Below are positions 2,286-18,186 of a stretch of 18,186 nt of DNA, in pieces. The stretch is from NCBI GenBank assembly GCA_038213805.1, contig JBBQSO010000101.1:1-18186 (forward strand), given 5' to 3'. This stretch comes from Planctomycetota bacterium. Its GTDB lineage: Bacteria > Planctomycetota > UBA11346. Every line of letters begins with the position of its first letter. Position 1 is the stretch's first letter. Under the pieces are notes generated by a model, which saw only the letters and a program-made list of their open reading frames with translations, was not told the DNA's origin and ran no database searches. The position numbers and the translations under genes were made by a program.

Positions 2286-3098
2286 TCATTTCACGTGTGC
2301 GAAAATCGAATGACCCTGACCAGGGGTGTAGGTACCGGCCGCGTTGGTGGTGAAGGCGACCGGGGTTCCGGTGCCAGCAGGATCCTCCATGATAGAGGCC
2401 TCGGTCGAGTAGATGTCATCGACCAGTGCGACGTCATCCTTGGCATCGGGATTGGGCACCTTCACGCGCACCGTGGCGCCAAAACCCATGGTGGCATCCG
2501 CGGTGGGCGTGCCCGTTCCGACCTTAAGCGGCTTGGTATGAGAATCGCCAAAACAAGCCACCGACTTGGTGCCTTTGTGCGAGACCACGTCGCGGTCGGC
2601 AAAGACCACGCGCGCCGAACCCGGTTCCGCAGGGCAGGCGAAATCGAAGGCGTAGTTCACCTGGGGCAGGGTGGCACTCGCCGAACCGCTCCAGGTGTTG
2701 ACCAAAGCGATGGTCTCCGAGCGCTTCGCTTTGTTCTGGGGACCTGCGACAGTCGCGCTCGGGCACTTGAAGACGCTGTTGGGCAGCGTCATCACGTCGC
2801 AGAGCACTTCCATGCATGCGTTAGACCACTGCTGGGCAGGAGCGCCAGTCGCAGGAGCGGTCGTGAACCACGGCTGCGGCCACGGAGTCTCTTCAGTGGT
2901 CGCATAGGCGACGCAGGCGCCCATGATCTGGCTCTGGTTCTTCGCGCATTTCGACTGGTTCGCCATTTCGCGGACCATGCCGATGACCGGCAGCAGCATG
3001 CCGGCGAGGATGGCGATGATGGAGATCACCACCAGCAGCTCGATCAGGGTGAAGCCCTGACGGTGCCGCATAGATGTTGAGTGGATGTTGAGGGACAT
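2286..3098 (-). CDS. Type IV prepilin-like protein (N-terminal cleavage/methylation domain; PVC DUF1559 / H-X9-DG-like type), 270 aa
   Basis: ATG at 3098 with AGGAG 7 nt upstream. Class III signal [29 protein letters not shown] with Glu at +5, then [22 protein letters not shown], and [14 protein letters not shown] (variant of the H-X9-DG motif). Confidence 0.93.
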
Positions 3099-3318
3099 GG
3101 CGAAGCTCCTGGGGGTTTCCCGGGGGATGGACACGGCCAAAGGAATGGATTGGCCGAATATCGGAAGATAGACCCTCGGTACGGCTTCACAACCATAGAC
3201 AACCATCCCCCTCAGAGGGTGTCGCACCCGTGTTGTTGGGGACAGTTGGGGGTGTAGGGACCACAAGAGGTCGGAAGTCCAGAAGCCCCGCGCTCACCGC
3301 GTCCACTGACAACGCAGT

Positions 3319-3403: not shown

Positions 3404-4111
3404 TCACTTCAAATGCACTTCTTCGTACAGTTCTTCACCCAGCTCTTTGACGCTGTAATTGCGCACGCGGGGCGGGGCGAAGTTGATCTCGCGCTGCTTG
3501 TCCCACTCCTTGGGGTCGTTACCCATGTGAGCGCCGGACTTCTTCAGTTCGTAGGCGCGTACGCCGTCGTACGTCAGCAGGGCGAACTTCCAGGACAGAC
3601 CGCTGAAGCAGTTGATGACGATGGGGTCCTGCTCCTTGCGGCCGACGCCGGGCTTCTCGCGCTCGCCGCCCAGTTCCGTCTCGATGTAGGTGCTGATACG
3701 GCTGATCTCGGATTCGGCGCCGGCGTTGTTCTTGCCGTTGAGCTTGGAGCCTTCGAGGACGATGCCGCTGCTGCCACCGACGCGCAGGAAGGCGGTCGGG
3801 AAGACGCCGTTCTGGGCGGACAGACGGCTGCGCTCCTGGAGGAGCTTGGCCTGGTACTGCGAGGGCTCGTAGCCGTCGACGAAGCCTTCGGGCAGGATGA
3901 CGATGTTGATCTGCTTGGGCGGGTCGACCGGCGCCTTTGGCGGCGACGCGGACTGGCCCTTGTCGGTGGGCAGCACGCTGGCGATGCCCTTCTCGGGCGC
4001 GGTGAACTTGGTGGTGAGGATGAAGAACAGCAGCAGGAGCATGATGCAGTCGATCATCGGCACGAGGTCGATCTTGCCCTCGTTGATCTTTTCACTCGGA
4101 TCTTCGGCCAT
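3404..4111 (-). CDS. exbD: ExbD/TolR-family protein, long and divergent paralog (235 aa)
   Basis: N-terminal IDLVPMIDCIMLLLLFFILT TM motif with the conserved Asp, followed by a VLP linker. AAGGAA SD upstream. The periplasmic part is longer than in a typical ExbD and lacks the IxAD motif. Symbol is family-level only. Confidence 0.88.
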   Translation of the reverse strand: MAEDPSEKINEGKIDLVPMIDCIMLLLLFFILTTKFTAPEKGIASVLPTDKGQSASPPKAPVDPPKQINIVILPEGFVDGYEPSQYQAKLLQERSRLSAQNGVFPTAFLRVGGSSGIVLEGSKLNGKNNAGAESEISRISTYIETELGGEREKPGVGRKEQDPIVINCFSGLSWKFALLTYDGVRAYELKKSGAHMGNDPKEWDKQREINFAPPRVRNYSVKELGEELYEEVHLK

Positions 4112-4197
4112 GGTCGTTTCCTTGATGCAACTGGTGGCGCCCGGTAAGCGGCGACGGATCGAGCTTCAGCCCCGCGATCAGCGATCGCGGTGGTTGC

Positions 4198-4776
4198 TCA
4201 GTGGTCGCCCGGCTTGCGGGTGGTGAAGACCAGGAAGACGAAGGGCTTCATGGTCGCCGGGGTCGAAACCTTGGGTTTCATCTGGTCGTTGGGATTGATG
4301 GTGTCGCAGGCGATCTGCTGGACCTCCTGCACGACGCGGAACTCTGTGTCAGCGTCGGCGCGGATCTCGAGCACGATCATCGGCAGCTGCAGACCGGAAT
4401 TCTTGGGGTCAGGGAACTTGGTCGCCTGGTCGTAGGCGCGGTCGAGCACGCGGCGTAATGCGATGTAGGACTCGTAGCTGTCCGGGCCCAGCGAGCTGTA
4501 TCTTTGGTTGTTGATGAGGATGGTGTTGCGCGGCGGCGTGCCAGCCTGGGTGCTACCGTAGACGTTGATGACGATGCGCTCCCATTCCTTGGGGTTCTTC
4601 ACTTCCTGCGCGGTGCGCGTCGGTGGCACCGAGATGTCGTTGACGCGCTGGTCCATGGTGATGCGACCGCAGAGCATGAAGAACAGCAGGAGCAGAAAGA
4701 TGCAGTCGATCATCGGGACGAGATCGACCTCGGCATCCGCGTGCTCAAGGCCGAAGCGCTTCTTCTTGTGACTCAT
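4198..4776 (-). CDS. exbD: ExbD/TolR-family protein (192 aa)
   Basis: Start chosen at MSHKKKRF (ATG 4776, AGGAAAG upstream). VDLVPMIDCIFLLLLFFML TM motif and C-terminal VLEIRADADTEFRVVQEV typical of ExbD. Symbol is family-level only. Confidence 0.9.
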   Translation of the reverse strand: MSHKKKRFGLEHADAEVDLVPMIDCIFLLLLFFMLCGRITMDQRVNDISVPPTRTAQEVKNPKEWERIVINVYGSTQAGTPPRNTILINNQRYSSLGPDSYESYIALRRVLDRAYDQATKFPDPKNSGLQLPMIVLEIRADADTEFRVVQEVQQIACDTINPNDQMKPKVSTPATMKPFVFLVFTTRKPGDH

Positions 4777-4895
4777 GATGGCTTTCTTTCCTGGCCACCT
4801 GCGGGCATGCCGGGCGGCATGCCGAGGCGACGGGTCCGGGTTCCGCATCCGTGTGGCGGGCGCGCGCTCAGGCGCACACCGCAGTGGCGAACGCG

Positions 4896-4923
4896 GCCTA
4901 CAGCTGAGGGTTCAGCCGCAGGC
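4896..4923 (-). other. Intercistronic hairpin after exbB
   Basis: On the - strand GCCUGCGGCUGA-ACCC-UCAGCUGUAGGC forms 12 bp including two G-U pairs, which are mismatches on the + strand. It lies 20 nt after the exbB stop and has no U-tract. Confidence 0.5.
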
Positions 4924-4943
4924 GCGCGTCCGCACATCGCGCA

Positions 4944-5672
4944 TCAGCGCGTGCGGAAGTAGTCGAGAACCTCGTTGGTGATGACCGTCGAGTCCAGGGT
5001 GCACTGGTTGACGCGGCCGCGCAGCCAGAAGAAGAAGTAGAGGTTGCCGATGGCGATGACCAGGCCGGTCGCGGTGCAGACCAGGGCCTCACCGATGCTG
5101 CCGGAGAGCATGTTCGGATCCACGCCACCCGGGTTGGCGGACATGGTGAGGAACGACCCGATGATACCGGACACGGTGCCGAGCAGGCCGATGAGGGTCG
5201 CCGAGCTGGCGAACATCGACAGCCAGCCGACCTTGCCCATGTACTTGTTGGTCTCGGCCGCACCGACCACCTCGGAGGCCTCTTTCATGGTGTCGTAGCC
5301 GAAGTCCTTCTTGTCGAGGGCGGCAGCGATGATGTTGCCGAGCATGCTGCGGTCGTTGGCGACCAGGTTGCGCGCGTTCTCGACCGCCTCATCGGTGGGG
5401 CCTTCGGCGAGGATGTTGTGGATCTCGTCGGCGAGGCCGTCCGGGATCAGGTTCTCGCGCTTGATGGTGAACACCCACTGGATGGCCAGCGAGTAGCTGA
5501 CCAGCGAAAGGCCGATCAGCAGGTACTCGACCGGACCGGCCTCGAGGATCAGGGAGATGACGCTCTTCGAGGCCGCAGCGGCCTTCTCGCCTTCCGCGCC
5601 CACGAGCAACCCAGCCGAGGCGAGGCAGAGCAGGGCGAAGACAGGAGCGGAGGAACGGAGGAATCGGCGCAT
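4944..5672 (-). CDS. exbB: MotA/TolQ/ExbB proton channel family protein (242 aa) with N-terminal signal/extra hydrophobic segment
   Basis: ATG 5672 with AGGGAGA SD. Motifs LIGLLGTVSGIIGSF and SIGEALVCTATGLVIAI correspond to ExbB/TolQ TM2 and TM3. It lies directly upstream of two exbD-like genes. Symbol is family-level only. Confidence 0.92.
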   Translation of the reverse strand: MRRFLRSSAPVFALLCLASAGLLVGAEGEKAAAASKSVISLILEAGPVEYLLIGLSLVSYSLAIQWVFTIKRENLIPDGLADEIHNILAEGPTDEAVENARNLVANDRSMLGNIIAAALDKKDFGYDTMKEASEVVGAAETNKYMGKVGWLSMFASSATLIGLLGTVSGIIGSFLTMSANPGGVDPNMLSGSIGEALVCTATGLVIAIGNLYFFFWLRGRVNQCTLDSTVITNEVLDYFRTR

Positions 5673-5739
5673 GGGGTCTCCCTGATGGGTGGCGATCGCG
5701 GACCGGCCGCGGGACGTCCTGGGTTCGATGGTGGGGCGG

Positions 5740-5768
5740 AGTATGGTCGGGACGACTACCTGCGGCAA
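5740..5768 (-). promoter_or_regulatory. Candidate sigma70-type promoter for exbB-exbD-exbD
   Basis: On the - strand: TTGCCG (5768-5763), a 17-nt spacer, then CATACT (5745-5740), about 67 nt upstream of the exbB ATG. Confidence 0.4.
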
Positions 5769-5913
5769 GCCAAGCACGCATGGTCAAGAATTTTGTGTGT
5801 CACCAGCGGACTGCGCTCAAGTGGCTGGAGCGCCGCGATTTAGGGCGCGAAGGCCGGTTAAACGCACGGCGCTTGGAAAGGTTCATTGGAATATTTCCGC
5901 GCGTTTCCAGAAG

Positions 5914-5999: not shown

Positions 6000-6045
6000 A
6001 GCCTAAAACCCGCAGACCCAGAGGATAGGACCGCGGTTTTAGGCT
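6000..6045. other. Inverted repeat overlapping the lysS stop codon (possible terminator or 3'-end structure)
   Basis: AGCCTAAAACC (6000-6010) / GGTTTTAGGCT (6035-6045), 11 bp. Confidence 0.5.
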
Positions 6046-7646
6046 CCGTGGACTTCCGGACTTCCGGACTTCCGGACTTCCGGACTCTCCTGCCGGAGCG
6101 CCGGGAACAGCACCACGTCGCGGATGTTGCCTTGGCCGGTGAACAGCATGACCAGGCGGTCGATACCCACGCCCTGGCCACCGCAAGCTGGCAGGCCGTG
6201 ATCGAGGGCGGTGCAGTAGTCTTCGTCGATCAGGCCGCTGACCTCGTCGTCCTTGGCGGTGGCGGCCTCCGCGACCTGCTCGCGGAAGCGCTGGCGCTGG
6301 ATGTCGGGATCATTCAGCTCGGTGTAGGCGTTGCCCAGCTCCATGCGCGCCATGAACAGCTCGAAGCGCATGGTGCGGGTGGGATCGTCTGCCCGCGCCT
6401 TGCACAGCGGGGTCAACCAGGTGGGCTGGTCGGTGATGAAGGTGGGTTGGATGAGGTGGGGTTCTACCACTGCCTCCCACACCTGGTTGAGCAGGCGGTC
6501 GTAGGTCGGGAAGTCCGCTGGGTCGAGACCGAGCTCGCGCGCCTTGGCGGTCACCGCCGCGCGGTCGTCGACGCGCAGACCGCCGAGCTGCTCGAGGGCC
6601 TGGTCGTAGGTGAAGCGGCGCCACGGCTGCCCGAGGTCGATGACGTGTTCGGCGAAGCGCAGCACGCGCGTGCCGAGCACACTGTCAGCGAGGTGGCGGA
6701 AGAGCTCTTCGCTGAGCGTCATCATCGCGTGGTGGTCGGCGTAGGCCTGGTACCATTCGATCATGGTGAATTCGGGATTGTGGCGCGGGCTGACGCCCTC
6801 GTTGCGGAAGTTGCGGTTCAGCTCGAAGACCTGCTCCATGCCGCCGACCAGGAGCCGCTTGAGGTAGAGCTCCGGCGCGATGCGCAGGTAAAGGTCACTG
6901 TCGAGGGCGTTGTGGTGGGTGACGAATGGCCGCGCCGTGGCCCCGCCGGGGATGGGGTGCATCATCGGCGTCTCGACTTCGAGGAAGCCGCGGTCGGTGA
7001 AGAAGCGCCGCACGCCCGCCACCAGCCGGCTGCGCAGCAGAAAAGTCGCCAAGCTGGCGTCGGACATCAGCAGGTCGAGGTAGCGCTGGCGGCTGCGCGT
7101 CTCGGCGGAGAGCGCCCCGCTGTCGGCGCCGGCCTGGTGCGGCGGCGGCAACAGGCTTTTGCCGAGCACGGTCAGGCGTTCGACGAAGACGCTGACCTCG
7201 CCGGTGCGGGTGCGCCCAACCGCGCCTGCGACGCCGACCCAGTCGGCAAGGTCGAGGGCCTTGACGACTTCCCACTGCTCCGCACCGAGCGCGCCGAGTT
7301 CGAGGTAGAGCTGGATGCCGCGCGCCTTCTTGGCCTCGGCGCCATCAAGGTCGGCGACCCCAGCGAGTCGCTGCGCCTGGTAGGCCTCGCCGCGGCTGCG
7401 GTCGTAGAGCGTGGCGAAGAACAGCTTGCCGCCGGCCTTGCGCAAATTGCCGATGCGCCCGGCGAGGCGGACCTGGGGCCCGCGCGGCTGGACGTCGCCT
7501 TCGACCTGGGCGGGCGCGAACTCGCGTGCCGCAACGATGGGACCGGTCGGGAGGAAGGTGGTGCCGAAAGGGTCGGCGCCGAGTTCACGCAGGCGCGCAA
7601 CCTTGGCGGCGCGGGCGGCGCGATATTGATCGATGGGATCAGTCAT
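6039..7646 (-). CDS. lysS: Lysine--tRNA ligase (class II)
   Basis: N-terminal OB anticodon-binding domain (LAGRI..LRKAGGKLFFATLYD...IQLYL), RQRYLDL, FLEVETPMM..IPGGATARPFVTHHN, YLRIAPELYLKRLLVGG, RNFRNEG..HNPEFT, ELGNAYTELNDP, GVGIDRLVML, IRDVVLFP. Confidence 0.98.
   Translation of the reverse strand: MTDPIDQYRAARAAKVARLRELGADPFGTTFLPTGPIVAAREFAPAQVEGDVQPRGPQVRLAGRIGNLRKAGGKLFFATLYDRSRGEAYQAQRLAGVADLDGAEAKKARGIQLYLELGALGAEQWEVVKALDLADWVGVAGAVGRTRTGEVSVFVERLTVLGKSLLPPPHQAGADSGALSAETRSRQRYLDLLMSDASLATFLLRSRLVAGVRRFFTDRGFLEVETPMMHPIPGGATARPFVTHHNALDSDLYLRIAPELYLKRLLVGGMEQVFELNRNFRNEGVSPRHNPEFTMIEWYQAYADHHAMMTLSEELFRHLADSVLGTRVLRFAEHVIDLGQPWRRFTYDQALEQLGGLRVDDRAAVTAKARELGLDPADFPTYDRLLNQVWEAVVEPHLIQPTFITDQPTWLTPLCKARADDPTRTMRFELFMARMELGNAYTELNDPDIQRQRFREQVAEAATAKDDEVSGLIDEDYCTALDHGLPACGGQGVGIDRLVMLFTGQGNIRDVVLFPALRQESPEVRKSGSPEVHGA
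6050..6086. repeat. Octamer tandem repeat (GGACTTCC)x4 + GGACT inside the 3' end of lysS
   Basis: Four perfect copies at 6050-6081 plus a partial copy. They encode most of the LysS tail SPEVRKSGSPEVH. Confidence 0.9.
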
Positions 7647-7692
7647 GGGTGCGGAAGCCTAGGTCTGGACCGGGAATAGCAACGCCGACCAA

Positions 7693-7727
7693 CGCGAAAC
7701 CCCCGGCCTGAGGCCGAGGGTTTCGCG
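7693..7727 (-). terminator. Putative terminator of the secretin operon
   Basis: On the - strand CGCGAAACCCUCGGCC-UCA-GGCCGGGGGUUUCGCG forms 16 bp with one U-G pair that exists only on this strand. It lies 28 nt after the secretin stop; the U-tract is weak. Confidence 0.7.
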
Positions 7728-7755
7728 CTGCCTTCCGATGTCGGACGTCGGACGC

Positions 7756-10317
7756 TTACAGGCGTTTTTCGATCTCGTCGAAGAGCACCACATCCGCCTG
7801 GAGGAGGATGAGGGTCTTCTTCTCGGTCTCGGAACGGCCGTTGGTGCTGAAGAGGCGGCCGAGGAACGGGATGTGGCTCAGGAACGGGATGCCCGAGTGC
7901 GACCGTGAGCTTTCGCCGTTGGTCATGCCCGCAAGGAGGAGCGAACCGCCATCGGGAATGGTCACCGAGGTACGGACCGACTGATAGTCCATCTCGGGAA
8001 TCATCAACGGGTTGTCGTTGTTGTTGATGCCCGCGTTGTTCTGGGTGATCGGCAGGCCGCCGAAGGTGCCCTGGGCCTGGCCCTGGAGGCCGGCCGGGGG
8101 CGCGCCGCCGAAGCGGCGCCACGCGGTCACCACGGCGTTAGTCGGACGCAGGGTCAGGGTGATATACTTCTTGTCCGCCGAGGCGATCGCCTGGACGTCC
8201 AGCACGGTGCCGTAGGAGAGCGTGCTGATGATCGGGTCGTACTGGCCCTGGTTGATGTCGTAGTCAGCGATGTAGGCCTGCTGGTTGATGTGCACGATGT
8301 GCGCCTGCTGGCCGTTGAACAGGGTCAGGTCGGGCTCGAACAACACGTTGCCGCGACGTTCTTTTTCGACCGCGTGCAGCACCGCAGAGACCAAGAAGTC
8401 GTCGGTCAGGCGCCAGTGCTGGGTCTGGAAGTTCAGGCCGTCCTGGCCGGTGACCGGCAAGGGCAGACCGTTCGGGGTCTTGTAGTCCTGCAGGGTGTTG
8501 TTGACGTTGGCCGCTGCGATGACGCTGCCCTGTTGGTGGTACACGCCGAAGGGGTTGGGAACGCCGACGCCGCCGGCGACCGGAATGACCTGCTGGCCAG
8601 GAAGCGGCTGGGTCGGCGCGCCGGTACCGCCCGGAGGGTTGAAGTTGCGCCAGTCGACGCCGATCTCTTCAAGCAGCGTGTTCTCGACGGTGAGGAACTT
8701 CACCTTCACGTGGATCTGGGTGCCCTTGGTGTTGCGCAGCGTACGCAGCAGGATGTCGACCTGCTTGTGCACCTCGGCGCTTTGGGTGATGACCATGGCG
8801 CCGTTGAATTCGGCGATGGCCACGCCCTCGCCCTTCCACAGGTCAGGCGAGACCACCTTCTGCACAATCTCGATGAACTCGTTGATCTCGGGCTTGGCCT
8901 CGGGTTCGACCGGGGGCAGCAGACGCGAGCCGGTGCCGCCGGGCTCGGGGATGTTGAGGTCCGGGCCGGGGAAGTTCGGCATCGCGTGGGTCAGATCGCG
9001 GATGTCGTACAGTTTCATGAAGATGTCGCCGCGCACGCCTTGCTCGTTCGAGACGAAAATCGCCTCGTCGCGCAGGGTGTACGTCAGGTTGGTCAGCTTC
9101 ATGATGAATTCGAGCACGTACTTCAGCTTCATCGCTTCGACGCGCAGGGTCACGGGCGGCGGTGCCGCCGCGACCACCTTGGGATCGAGGATGATGTTGA
9201 CGTTGGTGATGCGCTGCAAGAAGGCGAGCACGTCGACCAGGTCGTGGTCCTGGAAGTCGAGGGTCACTTCCTGTTCAAGCTGGTTCTTGATCTCGCGGCG
9301 CCAGGCCTCGCTCTCCTCGTTCAGGCCCTGCACGGGGGCGCTGCGCATGGCGTCGATCTTCGACCAGTCGCGGCTGTAGTTGACGATCTCGAGCTGGGGC
9401 AGCATCGAGGTGCGGATCGACTCGCTGAGCAGCTTGTGCTCTTCATCCCAGCGGTCGGCAGTGATCTGGCGCAGGTAGACGTGACGTTCGCGGCGGCACT
9501 TGATGAGCAGGCTCTGGGCGCGGTCCTCGGCGCGGTTGATGCGCAGGATCTGCTCGCAGAGCAGGATCGCCTCGTCGTAGTCGCGGCGCTCGCGCGCCTT
9601 CTGTGCGCGCTTGAGCATCGCGTCGATGCGGTCGCGCTCGATCTGCAGGCCGATGTCACGCAGGTCACGCTGGCGGTCGTGGGCGAGCTGGTTGCGATCG
9701 GCCGCCTGGTGGAGCTCCTCCTGCTCGCGGCGCTTGCGCGCCTCGCCGATCAGGGCCTCGACGCGGCGTTGTTCCGGCTCGCGGCGCGGGTCGGCGAAGG
9801 GCAGGCTGTCGAGGCGGGTGTTGGCGAGGGTGAATTCGCGCTCGGCCTCGGTGAAGTCGCCGGCGTCGAAGGCCTTCTGGCCGAGTTCCGACTTGGCCTG
9901 CGCCTCGACCCACAGCTGCTGCTGCTTGGCGAAGTACTCGTCGGAGGTGCGGTTGATGTGCGTGGTGCGCGCGTCGCGGTTGACGCCGCCCAGCGCCTGC
10001 GCCTGCTCGAGCGCCTTGCGGTAGACCTCGTTGCCGGGCTGCCAGTCGACGGCGATGGTGAAGTCGTGGATCGCGTCATCGAGGCGGCCCTGGTCGAGCG
10101 CCTTCTGCCCACGGTCGTGGTAGTAGGCGGCGGCGGCTTCGGCGGCCTGGCGCTGGGCCGCGCCGTCATCGGCTCCCGGCGTGCTCGCGACCGGTGCGGG
10201 GGCCGCAGCATCGGGCTTGGGCGCCGGATCCTCGGCGAACAGCGGACCGCACAGGGCGAGCAGGGTTGCGGAGATGGCGGACATCCGGCCATGGGCCGGT
10301 AGGGAGCGTGCGATCAC
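7756..10317 (-). CDS. Secretin (GspD/PilQ superfamily), paralog 3, with TPR-like/coiled-coil N-terminus
   Basis: The GTG start overlaps the upstream stop (GTGA); an alternative ATG is at 10284. Signal peptide ...LLALCGPLFA|ED. Helical TPR-like repeats; STN/N0-like VTLDFQDHDLVDVLAFLQRITNVNIILDP; N3-like LYDIRDL...HKQVDILLRTLR; core QIHVKVKFL, PDLTLFNGQQA, VTIPDGGSLLLAG, SGIPFLSHIPFLGRLF. Confidence 0.92.
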   Translation of the reverse strand: MIARSLPAHGRMSAISATLLALCGPLFAEDPAPKPDAAAPAPVASTPGADDGAAQRQAAEAAAAYYHDRGQKALDQGRLDDAIHDFTIAVDWQPGNEVYRKALEQAQALGGVNRDARTTHINRTSDEYFAKQQQLWVEAQAKSELGQKAFDAGDFTEAEREFTLANTRLDSLPFADPRREPEQRRVEALIGEARKRREQEELHQAADRNQLAHDRQRDLRDIGLQIERDRIDAMLKRAQKARERRDYDEAILLCEQILRINRAEDRAQSLLIKCRRERHVYLRQITADRWDEEHKLLSESIRTSMLPQLEIVNYSRDWSKIDAMRSAPVQGLNEESEAWRREIKNQLEQEVTLDFQDHDLVDVLAFLQRITNVNIILDPKVVAAAPPPVTLRVEAMKLKYVLEFIMKLTNLTYTLRDEAIFVSNEQGVRGDIFMKLYDIRDLTHAMPNFPGPDLNIPEPGGTGSRLLPPVEPEAKPEINEFIEIVQKVVSPDLWKGEGVAIAEFNGAMVITQSAEVHKQVDILLRTLRNTKGTQIHVKVKFLTVENTLLEEIGVDWRNFNPPGGTGAPTQPLPGQQVIPVAGGVGVPNPFGVYHQQGSVIAAANVNNTLQDYKTPNGLPLPVTGQDGLNFQTQHWRLTDDFLVSAVLHAVEKERRGNVLFEPDLTLFNGQQAHIVHINQQAYIADYDINQGQYDPIISTLSYGTVLDVQAIASADKKYITLTLRPTNAVVTAWRRFGGAPPAGLQGQAQGTFGGLPITQNNAGINNNDNPLMIPEMDYQSVRTSVTIPDGGSLLLAGMTNGESSRSHSGIPFLSHIPFLGRLFSTNGRSETEKKTLILLQADVVLFDEIEKRL

Positions 10318-12881
10318 AGGTTCGCCTCCAATTCGTCGTAGTTGATGACGGTCACGGTGGTGAGCAGGTAGAGTTGAAAGCGCACGGAGTAGCGTCCGCG
10401 CGCACCGAAGAGCCGGCCGAGGAATGGGATGTGCCCGAGGAACGGGATCTTGGTCGACGTCGCCTGCTCGAGATGGTTGCCGAATCCACCGACCAGCAGC
10501 GTGCCGCGGTCGGGGATGGTCACAGTGGTCGCGACCGTGGTCAGCAGCACGTTGGGCAGTTCAATGGGGTTATTTGAGCGCACCGTCTGGGTGTTCTGCT
10601 GACCGGTGATCGGATCGGGCGCACCGGTGGCGAAGGCGCGGGTGGTAACGACGTTCTCGAGGAAGAAGTCGGCGCTAGCGATCGCCGGGTAAAGATCGAG
10701 GGTGACGAACTTGCCATCGGAGCTGACGAAGGGCTTCACCGAGAGGTTGGCGCCGACGTTCAGCACCGTAACGCGCGGCGTCAAGCCAGCGGTCACGCCC
10801 TGGTTACCGGCGCCTACCTCGTAACTGCCGATGTAGCCGATCTGGTGGCCGAAGAAGCATGAACCACGCACGCCGTTCATGGTGGTGACCGAGGGCGCCT
10901 GCAGGATGGTGCCGCGCTGATTGCGCTCCACCGCCCTCAGGATGGTGGCCAGCTGCGTGCTCTTGAGGAAGGTCGAGCTCAGGCTCAGGCCGGTGCCCAG
11001 CGTTGGTGGGGCGGGGGCGAAGGCGGTCGCGGGCATGACGTTGGTGAGCGAACCGGCGTGGTCGAACGAATTGGTGGTGCGGTGGTAGCCGTTGGTGGTG
11101 CCGTCTGGACCGTTGAGGATGCCGCCCTTGGTTGTCCAATCGACGCCGATCTCCTCAAGGAAGCTGTCGTCGAGCTCGATCCATCGCACGTCGACGCGCA
11201 CCAGGATGTGGTGCACGTTGGCCTGCGAGCGGATGAATTGCTGGATGAGCAAGTGCACGCTCGGCGGGGCGTTGACGAAAAGATCGTGGCCGCGCACCTC
11301 AATGTTGTATTTGTCGTTGGTCCAGGTTGTTGGACTGACCGCCTTGACGATCAGGTCCTTGACGTCCTCGGGCGCGATGGCCGGGGTGTCCATACCGCCC
11401 ATCGCAGTCTTGAAGAGGTCGGCAGCACCGCCACCGCCGCCACCGCCGCGGCCACCACCACCACCACCTCCGGTGCTGGGATTGCCGGTGGGCAGACCAA
11501 CGCCCATGCCGATCTGGTCTTGTGGCTTGAAGAGCAGGTCGCTGATGTCGTAAAGCGCCAGCTCGCCACGCGTCTCGTCAGTGCCACCGATGTAGAGCGC
11601 GCCATTGGTGATGTGCCAAGTCTGGCCGATCAGGCGGCACGCCCAGGTAAGCACGTTCTCCAGGGTCATGTCCCTGGCCTTGAGCGAAATCGGATGGTCG
11701 CCACCGGCGAACACCGAGGGGTCGACGATGACGTTGACGTTGGCCTGCTTCTGCAAAGCGGAGAAAACGTCGACGGCGTTCTGCGCCTCGAAGTCGATGC
11801 TGACGCGCTGGTTGAGCTTCTCGAGCAGCTGTTCGTGCCACTCGGGCAGGCGCGCGGGCGGTGCGAGCTCGTTGCTCTGCCCGCCGTGGCGAGCGTCCCA
11901 ATCGTTGGCAAAGATCGGCTCGCCGTCGAAGCCACTGGGGATGAGCTCGCGCTCCATGCGCTCGAGCACCTCCTGGTGCAGCTCGGCATCGCGCTGCTCG
12001 GTGCTGAGGCGGCGCTGGTCGTGGACTTCGCTGATCAGACGGTTGAAAAGGGTCTGGACCTCGTCCTGGCCCGGGTACTCGCGCAGCAGGTGGCGGCAGG
12101 TGGCCAGGGCGAGGTCAAAATGGGCGTGGGATTCGAGGGCCTCGACGCGCGCGAGCTGCTCGTGGAAGGTGTCGCGCAGTCCATGCTGGTGGCCTTCCTG
12201 CGCGTCCTGGGCACTGGCAAGGCCGCTGCGGCGGGTGGCGTCGGCCTGGGCGGTGGAGGCGACGCGGGCCTGCTCGCGGGCATTCATGGCGAGGAGGTCG
12301 AGGCGCGCGAGTTCCGCGGCGATGGACGGTTCTGCGGCATACGGCAGGAGCTTGGCGCGACTGCCGGCGAGCACCCCCGCGGCGGACTCGAAGCGACCGG
12401 CCTGGACCATCAACTCGGCCTGATCGGCGGCGGTGCGCGCATCGGCGCGCAGCGCATCAAGGCGCAGCTGGCCGACCGCGGTGTCCCGACCCAGCGGCGC
12501 GGCGTGACCGGCGAGAATGTCCTCGACCTGGGCGAGCTCGGTGCGCGCGGTGGCGTGCTCGGGGCGGCGCAGCAGGACCCGGCAATAGGCCTCGCGAGCG
12601 TCGTTGTAGCGCGCCTCGGCCACGGCGCGGCGCGCCTCCGCGAGCAGCGCCTCGACCTGGACGGCTAGATCGGGCAACTCGCCCGCCGCCTGGGCGGCGG
12701 GGGCAGGCGCGGGAGTCGCGGCGGGGGCCCGTGCATCCTCGCCGCGGACGTGGCTTGCGGTGACAAGCACGGCGAACGCGGCCACGGCGGTGCGCAGCGG
12801 CGCTGCGCGCCGCTGCATTCCGCCAGGTCCGCGTCCGCGCGTGGCGGCGGCGCCTGGTTGTGGCTGCCGCCAGGAGCTCAC
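10314..12881 (-). CDS. Secretin (GspD/PilQ superfamily), paralog 2
   Basis: The GTG start overlaps the upstream stop (GTGA); an alternative ATG is at 12818. Same architecture: VSIDFEAQNAVDVFSALQKQANVNVIVDP, LYDISDL, a poly-Gly loop, VRVDVRWIEL, APSVTTMNG, VTIPDRGTLLVGG, KIPFLGHIPFLGRLF. Confidence 0.9.
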   Translation of the reverse strand: MSSWRQPQPGAAATRGRGPGGMQRRAAPLRTAVAAFAVLVTASHVRGEDARAPAATPAPAPAAQAAGELPDLAVQVEALLAEARRAVAEARYNDAREAYCRVLLRRPEHATARTELAQVEDILAGHAAPLGRDTAVGQLRLDALRADARTAADQAELMVQAGRFESAAGVLAGSRAKLLPYAAEPSIAAELARLDLLAMNAREQARVASTAQADATRRSGLASAQDAQEGHQHGLRDTFHEQLARVEALESHAHFDLALATCRHLLREYPGQDEVQTLFNRLISEVHDQRRLSTEQRDAELHQEVLERMERELIPSGFDGEPIFANDWDARHGGQSNELAPPARLPEWHEQLLEKLNQRVSIDFEAQNAVDVFSALQKQANVNVIVDPSVFAGGDHPISLKARDMTLENVLTWACRLIGQTWHITNGALYIGGTDETRGELALYDISDLLFKPQDQIGMGVGLPTGNPSTGGGGGGGRGGGGGGGAADLFKTAMGGMDTPAIAPEDVKDLIVKAVSPTTWTNDKYNIEVRGHDLFVNAPPSVHLLIQQFIRSQANVHHILVRVDVRWIELDDSFLEEIGVDWTTKGGILNGPDGTTNGYHRTTNSFDHAGSLTNVMPATAFAPAPPTLGTGLSLSSTFLKSTQLATILRAVERNQRGTILQAPSVTTMNGVRGSCFFGHQIGYIGSYEVGAGNQGVTAGLTPRVTVLNVGANLSVKPFVSSDGKFVTLDLYPAIASADFFLENVVTTRAFATGAPDPITGQQNTQTVRSNNPIELPNVLLTTVATTVTIPDRGTLLVGGFGNHLEQATSTKIPFLGHIPFLGRLFGARGRYSVRFQLYLLTTVTVINYDELEANL

Positions 12882-15412
12882 TGCATCTTCTCTTTTTCGC
12901 CCAGGTCGAGGATCTCGGCGTTGAGCATGAAGAAGATCTTGCGGTTCTCGTCGTAGACGCCGTTCTTGCTGAACAGGCGGCCAAGGAACGGGATGTGGCT
13001 CAGGAACGGGATGCCGGAGTGGGTGTTCTGGCGCAGCGCCTGGCTGAAGCCGCCGATCAGCAGGGTGCCCTTGTCGGGCATCATCACCGTCGAGCGCATG
13101 GTGCGCACCTCGACGTTGGGCAGCTCGATCGGGTAGTTGTTGATGCCGAGCACGACCAGGAAGTTGCCGCCCACCGCGAAGCGCGGGGCGCGCAGGATTT
13201 CGACGAAGAATTCCTCCGGCACCACCGAGCTCGGGCGGATCTCCATGGTGATGTACTTGCGGTCCGAGCTGACCACCGGGCGGACGTCGAGCAGGTCGCC
13301 GTAGTTCAGCACCTCGATCTTGGGATCGTAGGTGAAGTTGACGATGTCGTAGTCGGCAATGTAGGCGTACTGGTGGATGAACGCGGCGTTTGCGCGCTGG
13401 CCGTTAAAGCAGGTGATCGAGGGGTGCTCAAGGATCTGCGCATCGGTCTCCTGTTCGACCGCGCTGAAGATGGCGTTGATCTGGTCGGTGCGCAGAAAGC
13501 TGCCGCCGTGGTATGAGCCGTCGATGGTCAGACCCTTGTTGATGCCGTTGAAGTTGGCCTTGGTGCTGTTGGCGGGCAGCACGTTGTTGAGGTCGCCCTG
13601 GTAGGACAGGGTATCGTTCAGGCGCTCGTAGCCGTGGTCGCTGCTGCCACCGATGATGGTGCGGCCGCTCGGATTGTTGGCCGAGCCGGCGGCGGCCGCA
13701 GGATCGGTGTATTCGACGCCGATTTCCTCGAAGAAGCCCTTACGCACATCAAGCACCTGTACGCTGACGTGCACCTGCAGCGAGCCCTGATTGCGCAGGT
13801 TGGTCAGCAGCTGGTCGATGAGGGTGTGGACTTCGGGGCTCTGTGAGACGAACAGGGTCTGGCCACCGCGCTGGTCGATGGCGATGCCTTCCTTGTCCCA
13901 GGTGTCCTTGGCGACGTTGGACTTGATGAAATCCATCAGCGCGGCGGGATCGGCCGGGCGGCCGGTGGCCGCGGCGGCCTCCATCATGCCGCCCTTGAAC
14001 AGGCTGAATCCACCGCCGCCGCCCATGCCGCCGGCGCCGGCGTTGTACGCCAGTTCGCGGCCGGGGAAGTCGCCGATCGGCAGGACCAGATCGGTGACAT
14101 CGTACATGCGCAGCGTGACGGCGCCGGTGATCGGCGCCTTCGAGATGTAGATGGCCTGGTTCTGCAGGGCCATGTGCAGGCCGGTAAGCTCAAGGATCCA
14201 CTTCAGGGCGTCGCCGAAGCGCATGTCCTTGACGCGCAGGGTGACGTTGCCAGCACCGCCGCCGCCGACCACGTCGGGCGCGGTGATGATCGTGGTGTTG
14301 GTGACCTGGCGCAGGAAGGTGATGACGTCGTCGAACGACTGGTCGGCGAACTCGAAGGTGACGCGCTGCTCGAGCTTGTCCTTGAGCTGGGCGACCCACG
14401 GTTCGACCTGGTTCGAGCCGATTTCCTGCGCCTTGCGCAGGGCGCGGACCTGCCAGTCCTCGGGATAGACCAGCAGTTCGTTCTGCGGGATGAGAGCCTT
14501 ATGGATCTCTTCGTGGACGCGCGCCAGGCGTTCGAGGCGCTCCTCGCGGTAACGGTCGTCGAATTGCACATGGCCGCTGCGGCGCGCGCTCAGGTAGAGC
14601 GAACGCGCGTCCTCGCGGCGGCGGTCGAGCTCGTACGCGTTCCACGCATCGACTTCGGCGCGCTTGTAATCCTTGCGGTCGTAGGAGGCGCGCGCGCGGC
14701 GCAGCAGCTCGTCGACTTTGTTCTTGAGCGCCTCTTCCTGGAGGTCGCTCTGCTGCTCGGCATTGCGGCGGGCGTCGTCGCGGTTCTGTTCCTGGCGGGC
14801 GACGGCGGCGGTGCGCGCCTGGTTGCGCGCTTCGAGGCGCTTGGCTTCGACCTCGGCGGGCAGCTTGCCCCAGTCGAACTGGTAGGGGAAGGAACGCAGG
14901 CCGACGTCAACGCGGTCGTAGTCGAGCTCGGCGCCGGCGAAGTCGCCAGCCTTGGACTTGGCACCGGCGCTCTCCATGAGCGCGGCGAGGCGCACCGCGA
15001 TCTCCTGGGTCTTCACGTCCTGCAGGGCGTGGAACCAGGTCGCCGCCATCTGCAGGCGGTTGTCGCGCCGGCTAAGCACGGCGAGGATATCCTGGCGCAG
15101 CGCCTGGGCGGCCTCGTGCGAGGGATACAACCGCAGCGCGGCCTCGACCGCCTCGCGCGCCTCGACGAAGTGCGCGTTGGCGAACTCAGCCCGAGCCTGG
15201 ACGTATTTCGCCTCGGCCTCGATCTGGGCGCGCGCGAGCTCGCCGTTCCCCTGCTGGGCATCAGCCCAGAACTTCTGCTGGTCCGCGCTCAGCGCGGGCG
15301 CCGGCTGGGTGGCAGGGCCTGTGGCATCGGCCGCCATGAGCGGCGCTGCCAGCGGCAGAGCGAGCAGTGAGAGAAGCGCCGGGACGAGCACGGGCAGCCG
15401 GGGATGACGCAT
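12878..15412 (-). CDS. Secretin (GspD/PilQ superfamily), paralog 1 (844 aa)
   Basis: ATG 15412 with AAGGAG SD and signal peptide MRHPRLPVLVPALLSLLALPLAAPLMA|AD. Motifs VTFEFADQSFDDVITFLRQVTN, MYDVTDL, QVHVSVQVL, PSITCFNGQRA, VMMPDKGTLLIGG, SGIPFLSHIPFLGRLF. Confidence 0.92.
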   Translation of the reverse strand: MRHPRLPVLVPALLSLLALPLAAPLMAADATGPATQPAPALSADQQKFWADAQQGNGELARAQIEAEAKYVQARAEFANAHFVEAREAVEAALRLYPSHEAAQALRQDILAVLSRRDNRLQMAATWFHALQDVKTQEIAVRLAALMESAGAKSKAGDFAGAELDYDRVDVGLRSFPYQFDWGKLPAEVEAKRLEARNQARTAAVARQEQNRDDARRNAEQQSDLQEEALKNKVDELLRRARASYDRKDYKRAEVDAWNAYELDRRREDARSLYLSARRSGHVQFDDRYREERLERLARVHEEIHKALIPQNELLVYPEDWQVRALRKAQEIGSNQVEPWVAQLKDKLEQRVTFEFADQSFDDVITFLRQVTNTTIITAPDVVGGGGAGNVTLRVKDMRFGDALKWILELTGLHMALQNQAIYISKAPITGAVTLRMYDVTDLVLPIGDFPGRELAYNAGAGGMGGGGGFSLFKGGMMEAAAATGRPADPAALMDFIKSNVAKDTWDKEGIAIDQRGGQTLFVSQSPEVHTLIDQLLTNLRNQGSLQVHVSVQVLDVRKGFFEEIGVEYTDPAAAAGSANNPSGRTIIGGSSDHGYERLNDTLSYQGDLNNVLPANSTKANFNGINKGLTIDGSYHGGSFLRTDQINAIFSAVEQETDAQILEHPSITCFNGQRANAAFIHQYAYIADYDIVNFTYDPKIEVLNYGDLLDVRPVVSSDRKYITMEIRPSSVVPEEFFVEILRAPRFAVGGNFLVVLGINNYPIELPNVEVRTMRSTVMMPDKGTLLIGGFSQALRQNTHSGIPFLSHIPFLGRLFSKNGVYDENRKIFFMLNAEILDLGEKEKMQ

Positions 15413-15739
15413 TGCAACTCCTTGCTGAAGCGAGCGGCCGGCGGCTGGGGCCCACCGGGAAAGCGACTGGTTACCAGAAGATCCGGGGGACACGTAGTGG
15501 CTTCCCTGGCACGCGTTTGGACGCGCATGAGACAGGGCGGCGCACAGGCGCGCGGACGTGCGCACCATAGCGGGCTGATCCAGGAAGAAACACCCGCTGC
15601 AGCCCTGGCGCTTTTCGTGTCACTCACGCCGCGGTGCAAACGGCTGACAGATCAAGGCGAAGGACCTTTCGGAGGCGGTCCGGAACGGTCCTGACGAGCG
15701 CTTCGGGCGTGTCGGAACAGAGTCTGGGACATGCAGAGG

Positions 15740-15774
15740 GAAACGCCGTCCGGACTGGGTCCGGACGGCGTTTC
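15740..15774 (-). terminator. Putative terminator after the 624-aa gene
   Basis: Perfect 16-bp inverted repeat GAAACGCCGTCCGGAC-TGG-GTCCGGACGGCGTTTC, 22 nt after the stop at 15797. Confidence 0.7.
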
Positions 15775-15796
15775 GGGAGGCAGCCGGAGTCGGGAC

Positions 15797-17671
15797 CTAT
15801 CTGGGCTGGACGGCCGGGCCGGTGGGCGGGTGCAACGGGGCGTGCGAGCCGGGAGGCCCTGCCGGTCCGGCTGCAGGCGCAGCGGGTGCCGGCGCGACAC
15901 CAGTCGTCGCGGGCTTGGTCGGTGCCGATACGGGCTTGGGCGCAGTCGTCGCGGGCCTGGGAGTCGGTTCCTCGGCAGGCGCGGCTTCGGTCGCGCCGGT
16001 CTCATCGCCCGGTTTGGGTTTGCCCTTGTCGTCGGCTTCGGTGCCAGGGATGACGAATTCCTTCAGGAGTTTGTTGACGGGATCCCAGTAGACGAGGCGG
16101 CCATCGGCGAGTTCGTAGTAGACGGTGTCGGTTTTGAGCGACTCGTCGCCAGTCTTCTTATGAATATCTTCGAGCGGGCCGGTATCCGGGTCATGAGGGA
16201 TCGGTTCAGGCGGGACGAGTCCGTACTGCAGGAAGGTCGCCGGGCTCTTGCGGAACTGCTCAACCTCGTTGTACGGCCAGGTCTTGTAGTTCGGGTAGAC
16301 CTTGGAGGTGGGGTTGGTGGGCTTGAGGATCATCGACAGCTTGGTGAGTGGGATTTTGGCGTGGGTCTTAGCGTTTTCGAGAATCGCAACGTCGGTCTTG
16401 ACCTCTTTTTTCTTGAGATCGATGTCCTTGCCCTTGCCGCCCTCGCGCGTCTTCAGCGTGAGCTCGTACCAATACACACGCTCGACTTCGCGCTGCACCT
16501 CAACGAGGTGGAACGGCGTGGAGAAGTCTTGCCTGACCTTGTCCTTACCGAAGGGGTTGTCGATGATGACGTCAGCCTCGCCGACATCTGCGCCAGGCGC
16601 AACCTTGAACGGCTTGGGCGCCGGCACCCACTTCTGGTCACCCTTGGCATCGCGCACCAGCTTCATCGCCAACACTTGCGCGCCTACCATGTTGGGGTCG
16701 GTGGGATCGGCGCCGAAGGCTTTTTCGAAGGCGACGCGGATGCTCGACTGCGCGATCAGGCCGATCTCATCGCTGTTCGGGCCATTGTAGAGTGCTTCGC
16801 CGGGCTTGAGCGCGCTGGCGAACGGACCGCTGGTGCTGCCGGGCACGAACTTGGCGATGATGTCCTTCTGATGGTCGAGCAGGCCGGCGGCGAGGCGGGG
16901 CCAGTCGATGGGATCCTCTTCGTACTTGCCGGCGACCACCACGACCGCCTGCGGCTGGTCGAGGTGCTTGCCAGGGTCGAAGTCGGCGCCGGTGGCCTTG
17001 GCGACGAGGTGGGCGCGATAGGCGTATTTTTCCCAAGCGGCCTGGGAATCGGTGGTGAAATGGGTCTCGGCGAGGCCGTTCTTGGCGTCGATCGCGACCA
17101 ACCCGTTCTTGTCGACGCCCTTGGCTGCGAGCGGCTTCCACATGCCGCCGGCACCGATCTTGTACTCGATCTGCACGCCGAGCTGGTCGGCGGTGTTCTC
17201 GACGGTCTCCTTCAGCCACGTCTTGTGCGCGAGGTCGCTGGCGCGGCTGTCGGCGTCGCGCGTGGACGCGGGCAGGGCGAGGGTCAGCTCGACGGTGCCG
17301 ATGTTGTCCCTGGCCGTCAAGGTCGGGGTCGGCAGTTCGTAGACGTAGGGATGGAAACCGACCACGACCACCGGGCCGGTGTCGATGGTCGTGGAGATCC
17401 ACACGATATGCGGCAGCGACGGCAGCTCGGCGGCCCAGCGCTCGCGCATCTGGTCAAGGTAGGGCGGCGGCGTCTTGAGCACCGGCGGCGTCTGCTTGGC
17501 GCTCATGTCACGGACGGTCTGCACCATCTCGTTGATCTTCTCGGGGCTGACGTCCTTCGGCCGGATGTCGGTATTGGTGAAGGTGTTGGTCAGCGACCAG
17601 ATGCAGAGGATGCCGGCGATGCCGACCACGGCCTTTTCACCGTGGGCGAGGGCGAGTTCCTGGGCGTTCAT
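15797..17671 (-). CDS. Membrane-anchored periplasmic protein with Fn3-like region and Pro/Ala/Thr-rich tail (624 aa); putative pilus/secretion alignment component
   Basis: ATG 17671 overlaps the upstream TGA (ATGA). The N-terminal HGEKAVVGIAGILCIWSL is a single hydrophobic segment. PTPTLTA..GTVELT..GVQIEYKIG..W...FTTD...YAYRAHLV resembles fibronectin type III strands. The ORF-track extension to 17989 overlaps the upstream gene and is not credible. Confidence 0.82.
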   Translation of the reverse strand: MNAQELALAHGEKAVVGIAGILCIWSLTNTFTNTDIRPKDVSPEKINEMVQTVRDMSAKQTPPVLKTPPPYLDQMRERWAAELPSLPHIVWISTTIDTGPVVVVGFHPYVYELPTPTLTARDNIGTVELTLALPASTRDADSRASDLAHKTWLKETVENTADQLGVQIEYKIGAGGMWKPLAAKGVDKNGLVAIDAKNGLAETHFTTDSQAAWEKYAYRAHLVAKATGADFDPGKHLDQPQAVVVVAGKYEEDPIDWPRLAAGLLDHQKDIIAKFVPGSTSGPFASALKPGEALYNGPNSDEIGLIAQSSIRVAFEKAFGADPTDPNMVGAQVLAMKLVRDAKGDQKWVPAPKPFKVAPGADVGEADVIIDNPFGKDKVRQDFSTPFHLVEVQREVERVYWYELTLKTREGGKGKDIDLKKKEVKTDVAILENAKTHAKIPLTKLSMILKPTNPTSKVYPNYKTWPYNEVEQFRKSPATFLQYGLVPPEPIPHDPDTGPLEDIHKKTGDESLKTDTVYYELADGRLVYWDPVNKLLKEFVIPGTEADDKGKPKPGDETGATEAAPAEEPTPRPATTAPKPVSAPTKPATTGVAPAPAAPAAGPAGPPGSHAPLHPPTGPAVQPR

Positions 17672-18186
17672 CTCTTCACCTCGGGCTTGGTGTCGGCGGG
17701 TCCGCCGCTGAGCGGCGGCAGCTGGGCGATCTTGCTGAAATCGAAGACCACGATCGTCAGGCGGCTGATGAGCGGGTCGTAGGGCACCATCTTGCGGTCG
17801 CCGGGCTTGTAGCCGGCCTTGTTGGCGATGCTGCCGCCGGTCACCACCATGACCGGGCTGGCGAGTTTTTCGATCGCGGCTTCGGCTGCGAGCAGGGCGG
17901 AGGAGGTGCCGCGCAGGGTGATGGTCACCTCGGTGGCGGTGGCGTAGTTTGCGAGATCGCCCTTTAACACCGGTTCGACGTTCTTCCACTCGACCCCGGC
18001 GAGCTGCGCCCCGAGCGCGTCGGGCAGGGTGGCCTTGGCTGGCGCGATCACCGGGTTGGGCAAAGGCTTGGCGCGGGTGTTGATCAACACCTCGGCGAGC
18101 TTCTCGACGATGCGGAAGCGCTTGGTCAGCCGCGCATGCAGGGTCGCCTCGGGCATGGTCGACTGACGGGTGTAGAAGCCCGCCAC
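17668..18186 (-). CDS. Partial PilO/PilN/GspM-like protein (C-terminal part; starts beyond the window)
   Basis: The frame is open to the window edge. The helix-strand pattern (RFRIVEKLAEVL; EVTITLRGTSSALLAAEAAI; VMVVTGGSI; LISRLTIVVFDF) fits the ferredoxin-like fold of PilO/GspM. It is ATGA-coupled to the next gene, upstream of the secretins. The CDS is likely real; the family assignment is inference. Confidence 0.6.
   Translation of the reverse strand: MAGFYTRQSTMPEATLHARLTKRFRIVEKLAEVLINTRAKPLPNPVIAPAKATLPDALGAQLAGVEWKNVEPVLKGDLANYATATEVTITLRGTSSALLAAEAAIEKLASPVMVVTGGSIANKAGYKPGDRKMVPYDPLISRLTIVVFDFSKIAQLPPLSGGPADTKPEVKR

Follow-up and report, generated by a model that had tools for sequence, protein, structure and literature searches.

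Three tandem secretin paralogs in an uncultured planctomycete family and the question of a mixed secretin ring

Secretins serve type II and type III secretion, type IV pili and filamentous phage as gates in the outer membrane, and every solved secretin that we know of is a ring of one protein. Whether such a ring can be heteromeric is the question raised by a locus of an uncultured planctomycete in which three secretin genes, here called A, B and C, stand in tandem. The locus lies on contig C101, the whole of which (18,186 bp) is the stretch analysed here, or the window; the genome (Planctomycetota bacterium, GCA_038213805.1) measures 5.5 Mb and is 90% complete, and its relatives are metagenome-assembled genomes (MAGs) of uncultured Planctomycetota. 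The trio has been kept since before the genera of its family split, and so offers a concrete place to ask this question and to examine what a loss of symmetry would do to gating and docking. A mixed ring, if shown, would be the first for the secretin family.

Neither a heteromeric secretin nor a system with several secretin paralogs is described in the literature searched. The section of PMC6668835 on type IV filament duplications lists ATPases, platform proteins and pilins, not secretins; in P. limnophila, according to excerpts of a 2025 report (PMC11958385), three unlinked pilQ-like genes are treated as homomultimer formers. A conserved, coupled secretin trio is undescribed in that literature, and added here are the join of its contig to pilM, the match of an upstream protein (X2) to Amuc_1100, statistics on the gene junctions, a tree, and a tally of copies across the phylum.

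Three coupled secretin genes

All three genes are read from the minus strand. Secretin A (12878..15412) encodes 844 amino acids (aa) comprising a putative signal peptide, a helical/TPR N-terminal domain, an N0/STN-like domain, a linker, an N3-like domain and the secretin domain. Secretin B (10314..12881; 855 aa counted from a GTG that overlaps the stop of A) has the same domain order and a Gly-rich linker, and secretin C (7756..10317; 853 aa counted from a GTG that overlaps the stop of B) is the most conserved of the three paralogs. The original prediction, that these are three full-length, diverged secretins sharing one domain order, holds at these coordinates. Pfam Secretin (PF00263) is found in each protein, at 77 (A), 83.6 (B) and 82 bits (C) against a cut-off of 27.5 (E 1.7e-21 to 1.6e-23), and pairwise identity is 26% for C-B, 32% for C-A and 31% for B-A over 760-851 alignment columns. 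Pfam TPR gives weak matches in C and B.

The AlphaFold2 model of C, computed from a 71-sequence alignment, has a mean predicted local distance difference test score (pLDDT) of 81.8. Behind a signal-like N-terminus, residues 56-305 are modelled as an entirely helical region (pLDDT 80-98) that includes TPR-like hairpins and whose longest helices reach 65 residues; it is followed by an N0/STN-like alpha/beta domain (350-438), a disordered linker (444-477), an N3-like domain (478-531) and a beta-rich secretin domain (534-844). The top Foldseek matches of the model are the Vibrio cholerae competence-pilus PilQ (6w6m, E 5.4e-24), BfpB, InvG, GspD and the Pseudomonas aeruginosa PilQ, and the N-domains of GspD/XcpQ are matched at E 1.4e-4 (3ezj) and 2e-4 (5mp2). 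When A and B are aligned to C, the three proteins agree in length over N0 (86-87 aa), over N3 (50-51 aa) and over the final segment of the secretin domain (83 aa); two loop-rich barrel segments are clade-specific (120/105/130 and 99/111/110 residues in A/B/C). Eleven residues are invariant in all 71 aligned paralogs and relatives, B included.

Judged by eye, the N-termini of A, B, C and their orthologs carry a hydrophobic segment followed by an Ala-rich site. The idea that the proteins are lipoproteins was considered and rejected: the Cys of an ‘LALC’-type box occurs in only 14 of 24 C orthologs, and A and B of the window lack the Cys. The putative signal peptide of C in the window (10240-10317) contains ‘LLALCG’, and lipidation may occur in some lineages, not as a conserved feature. 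The linker of B, between the N0-like and N3-like domains (window 11380-11480), includes about 25 residues that are nearly all Gly, GGGGGGGRGGGGGGG; the corresponding linkers of A and C are shorter and Gly/Pro-rich.

The NCBIfam models of the Amuc_1098 type, MshL, PilQ, SctC and GspD are matched partially, and far under their cut-offs, by all three proteins. Model NF042912 (‘Amuc_1098 family’) ranks first or second among the NCBIfam matches of each, through the C-terminal ~140 residues only and at 95.4 (C), 76.2 (B) and 72.8 bits (A) against an equivalog cut-off of 750. The PilQ model TIGR02515 is matched at 66.8-76.9 bits (cut-off 284) and the GspD model TIGR02517 at 58.5-89.9 bits (cut-off 351), and no AMIN domain is found among the Pfam matches of A, B and C. 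The neighbours of the trio are pilM-type genes, not gspC-M. A, B and C are best read as PilQ-type secretins and are new members of the TPR-secretin kind found in the Planctomycetes-Verrucomicrobia-Chlamydiae (PVC) group.

GTGA is the sequence at both the A/B and the B/C junction, and its GTG lies in the reading frame of the downstream gene, in agreement with the overlaps of 4 nucleotides (nt) between stop and start that had been claimed. The same junctions were tallied in the window together with a second set of 29 related contig loci (the species of which overlap those of the same-family sample described below). Of 41 A-B and B-C junctions, 39 have the 4-nt overlap, 38 as GTGA and one as ATGA; by junction, it is found at 16/18 A-B and 23/23 B-C, and both exceptions have an ATG 3 nt past the stop. 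Because the overlap is so widely kept, it lies beyond chance for the secretin genes.

The open reading frame (ORF) of A spans 12878..15568, and its likeliest start is the ATG at 15412, which stands 6 nt after an AAGGAG. A GGAGG precedes the GTG start at the B-C junction by about 9 nt. Alternative in-frame ATG codons occur at residue 22 of B and residue 12 of C, and either could be the true start; the conserved -4 spacing favours the GTG as the predicted start of both genes. When B is read from its GTG, an Arg-rich stretch of 20-35 residues precedes the hydrophobic core (window 12780-12881), with RR pairs in several orthologs. Such a leader is unusual for an outer-membrane beta-barrel protein, and a start at the internal ATG (residue 22) would leave a signal peptide of the usual kind.

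The unit had also been described as bounded by two hairpins, and folding bears this out. The hairpin before A (15740..15774, minus strand) has a perfect 16-bp stem, lies 22 nt past the stop of the upstream gene X3 and precedes a 330-nt spacer upstream of A; it is terminator- or attenuator-like. The hairpin after C (7693..7727, minus strand) has a perfect 19-bp stem 28 nt past the stop of C and resembles a terminator at the end of the unit. Judged by folding against 200 shuffles, the first reaches -34 kcal/mol (z -6.54) and the second -38.6 kcal/mol (z -7.09), with 0/200 shuffles equally stable in either case. A consensus scan of 7500-16000 returned 0 promoter-like sites and 6 terminator-like sites (5.1 expected from shuffles), with neither hairpin among them, because neither has a T tail.

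Conservation of the trio and its operon

The same-family sample comprises 24 genomes from 15 genera, in which C was the query and A and B were assigned from identity and position. All 24 genomes give matches, and 18 have three adjacent ones on a single contig, in the order A, B, C; contig ends interrupt the trio in the remaining six, of which three have all members on two contigs and three are fragmentary. No member of the trio is missing in any same-family genome with continuous sequence. Among the 29 related loci, the order A-B-C is found in all 17 that reach far enough, the others being short contigs with B-C or C only. In locus L004 gene A is split, and the split coincides with a run of 10 N.

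The three paralogs form stable orthologous clades, the outcome that a proposed comparative test of the mixed-ring reading had asked for and one that favours that reading. The tree holds 68 rows and 821 columns (15 rows in clade A, 16 in clade B), omits rows shorter than 700 aa as well as 13 of the 29 related loci, and is rooted on another secretin of the same genome; it comes from an IQ-TREE quick search with the Shimodaira-Hasegawa-like approximate likelihood ratio test (SH-aLRT) as its only measure of support. Clades A, B and C each have an SH-aLRT of 100; together they form a monophyletic group with support 99, in which C branches as the sister of A+B (98). Branches of B are 2-3 times as long as those of A and C. 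The deep nodes are weak, several long branches meet there, and the relation of the trio to the secretins of other families is unsure. The trio is thus placed by the tree as the product of two duplications at the base of a planctomycete family, before the radiation of at least 15 genera. The other half of that test, whether the clades are always kept together, comes out in favour as well within the family, wherever sequence is continuous; elsewhere in the phylum, other families have one, two or three matches.

In pairs of orthologs with a synonymous divergence (dS) below 1.4, the ratio of nonsynonymous to synonymous substitution (dN/dS) is 0.05-0.30 for A, B and C, and more distant pairs are saturated. 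The closer pairs give 0.15-0.30 for B vs 0.11-0.20 for A and C. Between loci L006 and L007, for example, the values are 0.11 (A), 0.15 (B) and 0.11 (C), and between the window and L002 they are 0.17 (B) and 0.06 (C); B has the highest value in 7/7 pairs. These ratios mark all three paralogs as genes under purifying selection, with B evolving fastest. Conservation of the barrel region is 0.42-0.63 in B vs 0.45-0.74 in A and C.

The trio closes an operon with the order pilM/N-fusion, X2, X3, A, B, C. X3 (15797..17671, minus strand) encodes a conserved protein of 624 aa without a known family, in the position of PilP or Amuc_1099 just before the secretins, and its ATG overlaps the stop of X2 (ATGA). 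Orthologs of X3 stand immediately upstream of A in at least 17 loci, with 25-71% identity; X3 has no Pfam match, its profile search of PDB sequences gave only E 0.042, and the protein atlas holds it in unnamed Planctomycetota clusters only. The C-terminal 171 residues of X2, an Amuc_1100/PilO-like protein, occupy 17668..18186 (minus strand) up to the high end of the window, and the remainder of the gene lies on contig C68 of the same genome, which abuts that end: in a tblastn search with the X2 of L002, residues 180-350 fall at window 18186..17674 and residues 1-181 at C68:543..1. The pilM gene stands upstream of X2 on C68 (C68:540-2402; locus L048) and encodes 620 aa with a PilM_2 match at E 1.4e-43. 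An extension at the C-terminus, with an ‘NLLP’ motif that we take to be a PilN-like signature and with a membrane helix, makes the product best described as a PilM-PilN-like fusion. Upstream of pilM, C68 carries a divergent FHA-SpoIIE phosphatase gene.

X2 has no match in Pfam or in a profile search of PDB sequences, and its resemblance to the Amuc_1100 family was first indicated by the protein atlas. The AlphaFold2 model of X2 was built for the L007 ortholog (pLDDT 75). Among the PDB matches of this model, chains of Amuc_1100 take the first ten places (E 1.2e-5 to 2.5e-4, TM score by target 0.60-0.67; structures 6laf, 6kny and 6lad), with PilO (2rjz) next. Since the X2 model best matches Amuc_1100, the operon is identified, on this modelled fold, as the planctomycetal counterpart of the Akkermansia Amuc_1098-1102 (MUL2) pilus-like cluster, and an uncultured planctomycete group is tied to that cluster. 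Amuc_1098-1102 is, to our knowledge, currently the only PVC pilus-like system backed by genetics. The order PilM-X2-X3-secretin(s) recurs in relatives of the window and in distant families of the phylum.

In Akkermansia muciniphila, as the relevant portion of PMC4960237 describes it, Amuc_1101 is PilM and Amuc_1098 is a secretin of 907 aa with N-terminal TPRs that is the most abundant outer-membrane protein; A, B and C resemble it in joining a TPR/helical N-terminal region to a C-terminal secretin domain within about 850-900 aa. The cluster Amuc_1098-1102 is now called MUL2, and extracts of PMC13174399 and PMC12418764 propose that it serves glycan attachment and uptake. Its layout, in the part of PMC13174399 that gives it, parallels the one found here: PilM, an Amuc_1100-like protein, one further gene and then the secretin. 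The two clusters differ in that three secretin genes stand here and one there, and in that no Amuc_1102-like pilin gene is found beside pilM in the 4.5 kb of C68 that were examined. The scores far under the NF042912 cut-off also mean that A, B and C are not Amuc_1098 equivalogs. In these sources a role in polymer uptake is on record for the Akkermansia cluster only.

The type IVa PilMNOPQ operons of Pseudomonas, Myxococcus, Thermus and Vibrio offer a second comparison. Like them, the present operon has a PilM (here with a PilN-like extension), a PilO-fold protein and the secretin in last place. Unlike them, it has no recognisable PilP, its PilQ is tripled, and a helical/TPR N-domain of ~250 aa replaces the AMIN domains of PilQ. 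A third parallel is with the paired TPR-secretins of other Planctomycetota, undescribed in the literature searched, which belong to the same long subfamily and likewise stand downstream of PilM-X2-X3. Here, however, there are three copies, and in the tree, with its weak deep nodes, the trio is a family-specific radiation and not a set of one-to-one orthologs of the pairs.

One mixed ring or several separate rings

The reading ranked first is that A, B and C form a mixed (hetero-oligomeric) secretin ring, a tentative preference to which we give somewhat less than an even chance. The three genes would share a transcript and close a PVC-type pilus-like operon, in which three intact, non-redundant and apparently exported secretins follow one set of genes in the PilM/N, PilO and PilP positions (the inner-membrane alignment genes). 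Paralogs of homomers tend to heteromerise when co-expressed. The mixed ring is ranked first because the copies would be co-translated at one site, are always co-inherited, and would, as duplicates of a ring-former, co-assemble by default. The three proteins would then enter one outer-membrane conduit as a ring of repeating A-B-C units or of some other fixed ratio, giving a lowered-symmetry pore for a pilus-like fibre and possibly for polymer uptake of the kind proposed for Akkermansia MUL2.

A stricter form of the mixed ring, with A, B and C as obligate subunits of a single hetero ring such as (ABC)4 or (ABC)5 that serves a PVC-specific pilus-like machine and maybe polymer import, is a shade less probable again. 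If true, it would be the first lowered-symmetry secretin pore, and the two-paralog loci of other Planctomycetota would be a simpler form of the same principle. In the bicomponent beta-barrel pore-forming toxins a heteromeric ring evolved from a homomeric one, and the paralogs became obligate alternating subunits. The toxins are unrelated to the trio in fold and function, and the parallel is a conceptual one only.

Several observations weigh against a mixed ring. The solved secretins matched by sequence or structure search contain 12-15 identical chains per entry, just as had been stated of known secretins in general, namely that they are homo-oligomeric rings of 12-15 subunits. The differing barrel loops of A, B and C, together with their 26-32% identity, may not suit a single regular barrel. 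The paralogs also evolve unequally: B is 1.4-2.9 times faster by dN/dS, and identity among orthologs in the N-terminal domain is 35% for B vs 60% for A and C. In L002, the closest relative of the window (90% DNA identity), gene A (L002:4904-7440) carries five 1-nt insertions; B, C, PilM, X2 and X3 are intact there, and B and C show in-frame indels only. With the insertions ignored, the A gene of L002 has a dN/dS of 0.10 and no stops, and the insertions point to assembly (long-read) error or to a very recent event or decay.

Copy number outside the family is a further difficulty, being fixed at three only inside it. A phylum survey was made on an even sample of 151 genomes of at least 85% completeness, a match being a hit with E <= 1e-40, so that matches are not strict copy numbers. 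Of these genomes 116 match; the 108 matching genomes outside the family have one match (36 genomes), two (67) or three (5). In at least 21 of the two-match genomes the pair lies 6-13 kb apart on one contig. In two such loci, L035 and L036, the interval between the paralogs encodes a large unknown protein, a further one that matches Pfam TPR only in L036, and ExbB together with two or three copies of ExbD; ExbB/ExbD between separated copies reads more like two different channels. In three other loci outside the family two secretin genes are adjacent. These counts suggest that clusters with several secretins are the commoner state in Planctomycetota and that the tandem trio is this family's own version.

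Nor does the coupling itself speak for one ring. It had been taken as a sign of joint assembly, and the overlaps are indeed conserved, but they are operon-wide and not specific to the secretin genes: X2 and X3 overlap in the same way, and so do all seven genes of L032, so that coupling marks an operon, not one ring. L032 belongs to a distant family (L032:2022-16826) and has PilM, X2, X3, two secretins and two TPR proteins (of 1188 and 358 aa) in consecutive 4-nt overlaps; a coupled chain of seven genes is unusually long.

The strongest rival, at a probability only slightly below that of the mixed ring, is that A, B and C form three separate homo-oligomeric rings with self-specific interfaces and specialised roles (different fibres or cargoes, or export vs import) on a shared PilM/N-X2-X3 platform and from a shared operon. 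All solved secretins are homomeric, each paralog keeps every invariant residue and the full domain set and could thus be autonomous, and the clade-specific barrel loop lengths suggest three different lips or gates. The two copies of other families that often lie kilobases apart, with ExbB/ExbD between them in the two loci checked, fit separate rings as well, as does the report, in the accessible part of PMC11958385, that the three unlinked pilQ-like genes of P. limnophila are each deletable. The genome of the window has several ATPases and platform genes, and many prepilin-type proteins among which the fibres or cargoes could differ. Its secretin matches number 6, set against 2 strong PilM matches, 4 platform loci and 4 full-length ATPases of the PilB/GspE type, so that the trio is not obviously mappable one-to-one onto three machines. 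Separate rings would not, however, need a fixed order, 4-nt coupling and strict co-retention behind one set of alignment genes, and no member is lost in any genome with continuous sequence. A complex prediction for the secretin domains (A 546-844, B 560-855 and C 534-853, with B as partner) gave 0.04 against a mark of 0.32; it was run without controls and bears neither way. Of the sequencing runs listed for the stretch, none is recorded as RNA. The mixed ring is accordingly placed first and three separate rings a close second, and no result discriminates the two.

A third explanation, in which the pore is built from only one or two of the paralogs and the rest has an accessory part (as a secretin-derived scaffold, assembly factor or docked periplasmic or outer ring), is unlikely. 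B would be the likeliest accessory, having the longer branches, the highest dN/dS in every pair and, in its N-domain, the least conserved region (0.35), and solved secretins with non-secretin partner rings provide precedents (PilQ-TsaP, 6ve2; BfpB-BfpG, 9u5s; RcpA-TadD, 8odn). Against this, B keeps all 11 invariant residues, its Pfam score is the highest of the three, and conservation of its barrel region comes close to that seen in A and C. Functional redundancy, with duplicates kept by chance or for dosage and having no joint function, is largely refuted by the sequence record and nearly excluded: tandem duplication is the commonest route to paralogs and copy number does differ among families, but these duplications are older than the radiation of at least 15 genera, the copies have diverged by 68-74%, and such persistence of three genes, all under purifying selection and none lost in continuous sequence, is not expected of redundant ones.

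Downstream and flanking genes

The first gene downstream of C encodes a class II aminoacyl-tRNA synthetase (6039-7646). It is followed by ExbB and two ExbD genes and a prepilin-type N_methyl gene (3404-5777 and 2286-3266, minus strand; MotA_ExbB E 2.3e-20), and the same set follows C in L007. A linkage between secretin genes and motor genes (ExbB/ExbD) is thus recurrent, being found after the trio here and between the paralogs in L035 and L036. Toward the low end of the window, on the plus strand, lie a 394-aa ORF (881-2065) with a high GC content at third codon positions (GC3), no family and a weak MscS_porin match (E 0.0012), and a nitroreductase-family gene that is open at its 5' end (3-647; E 4.2e-18); both appear unrelated to the secretin unit.

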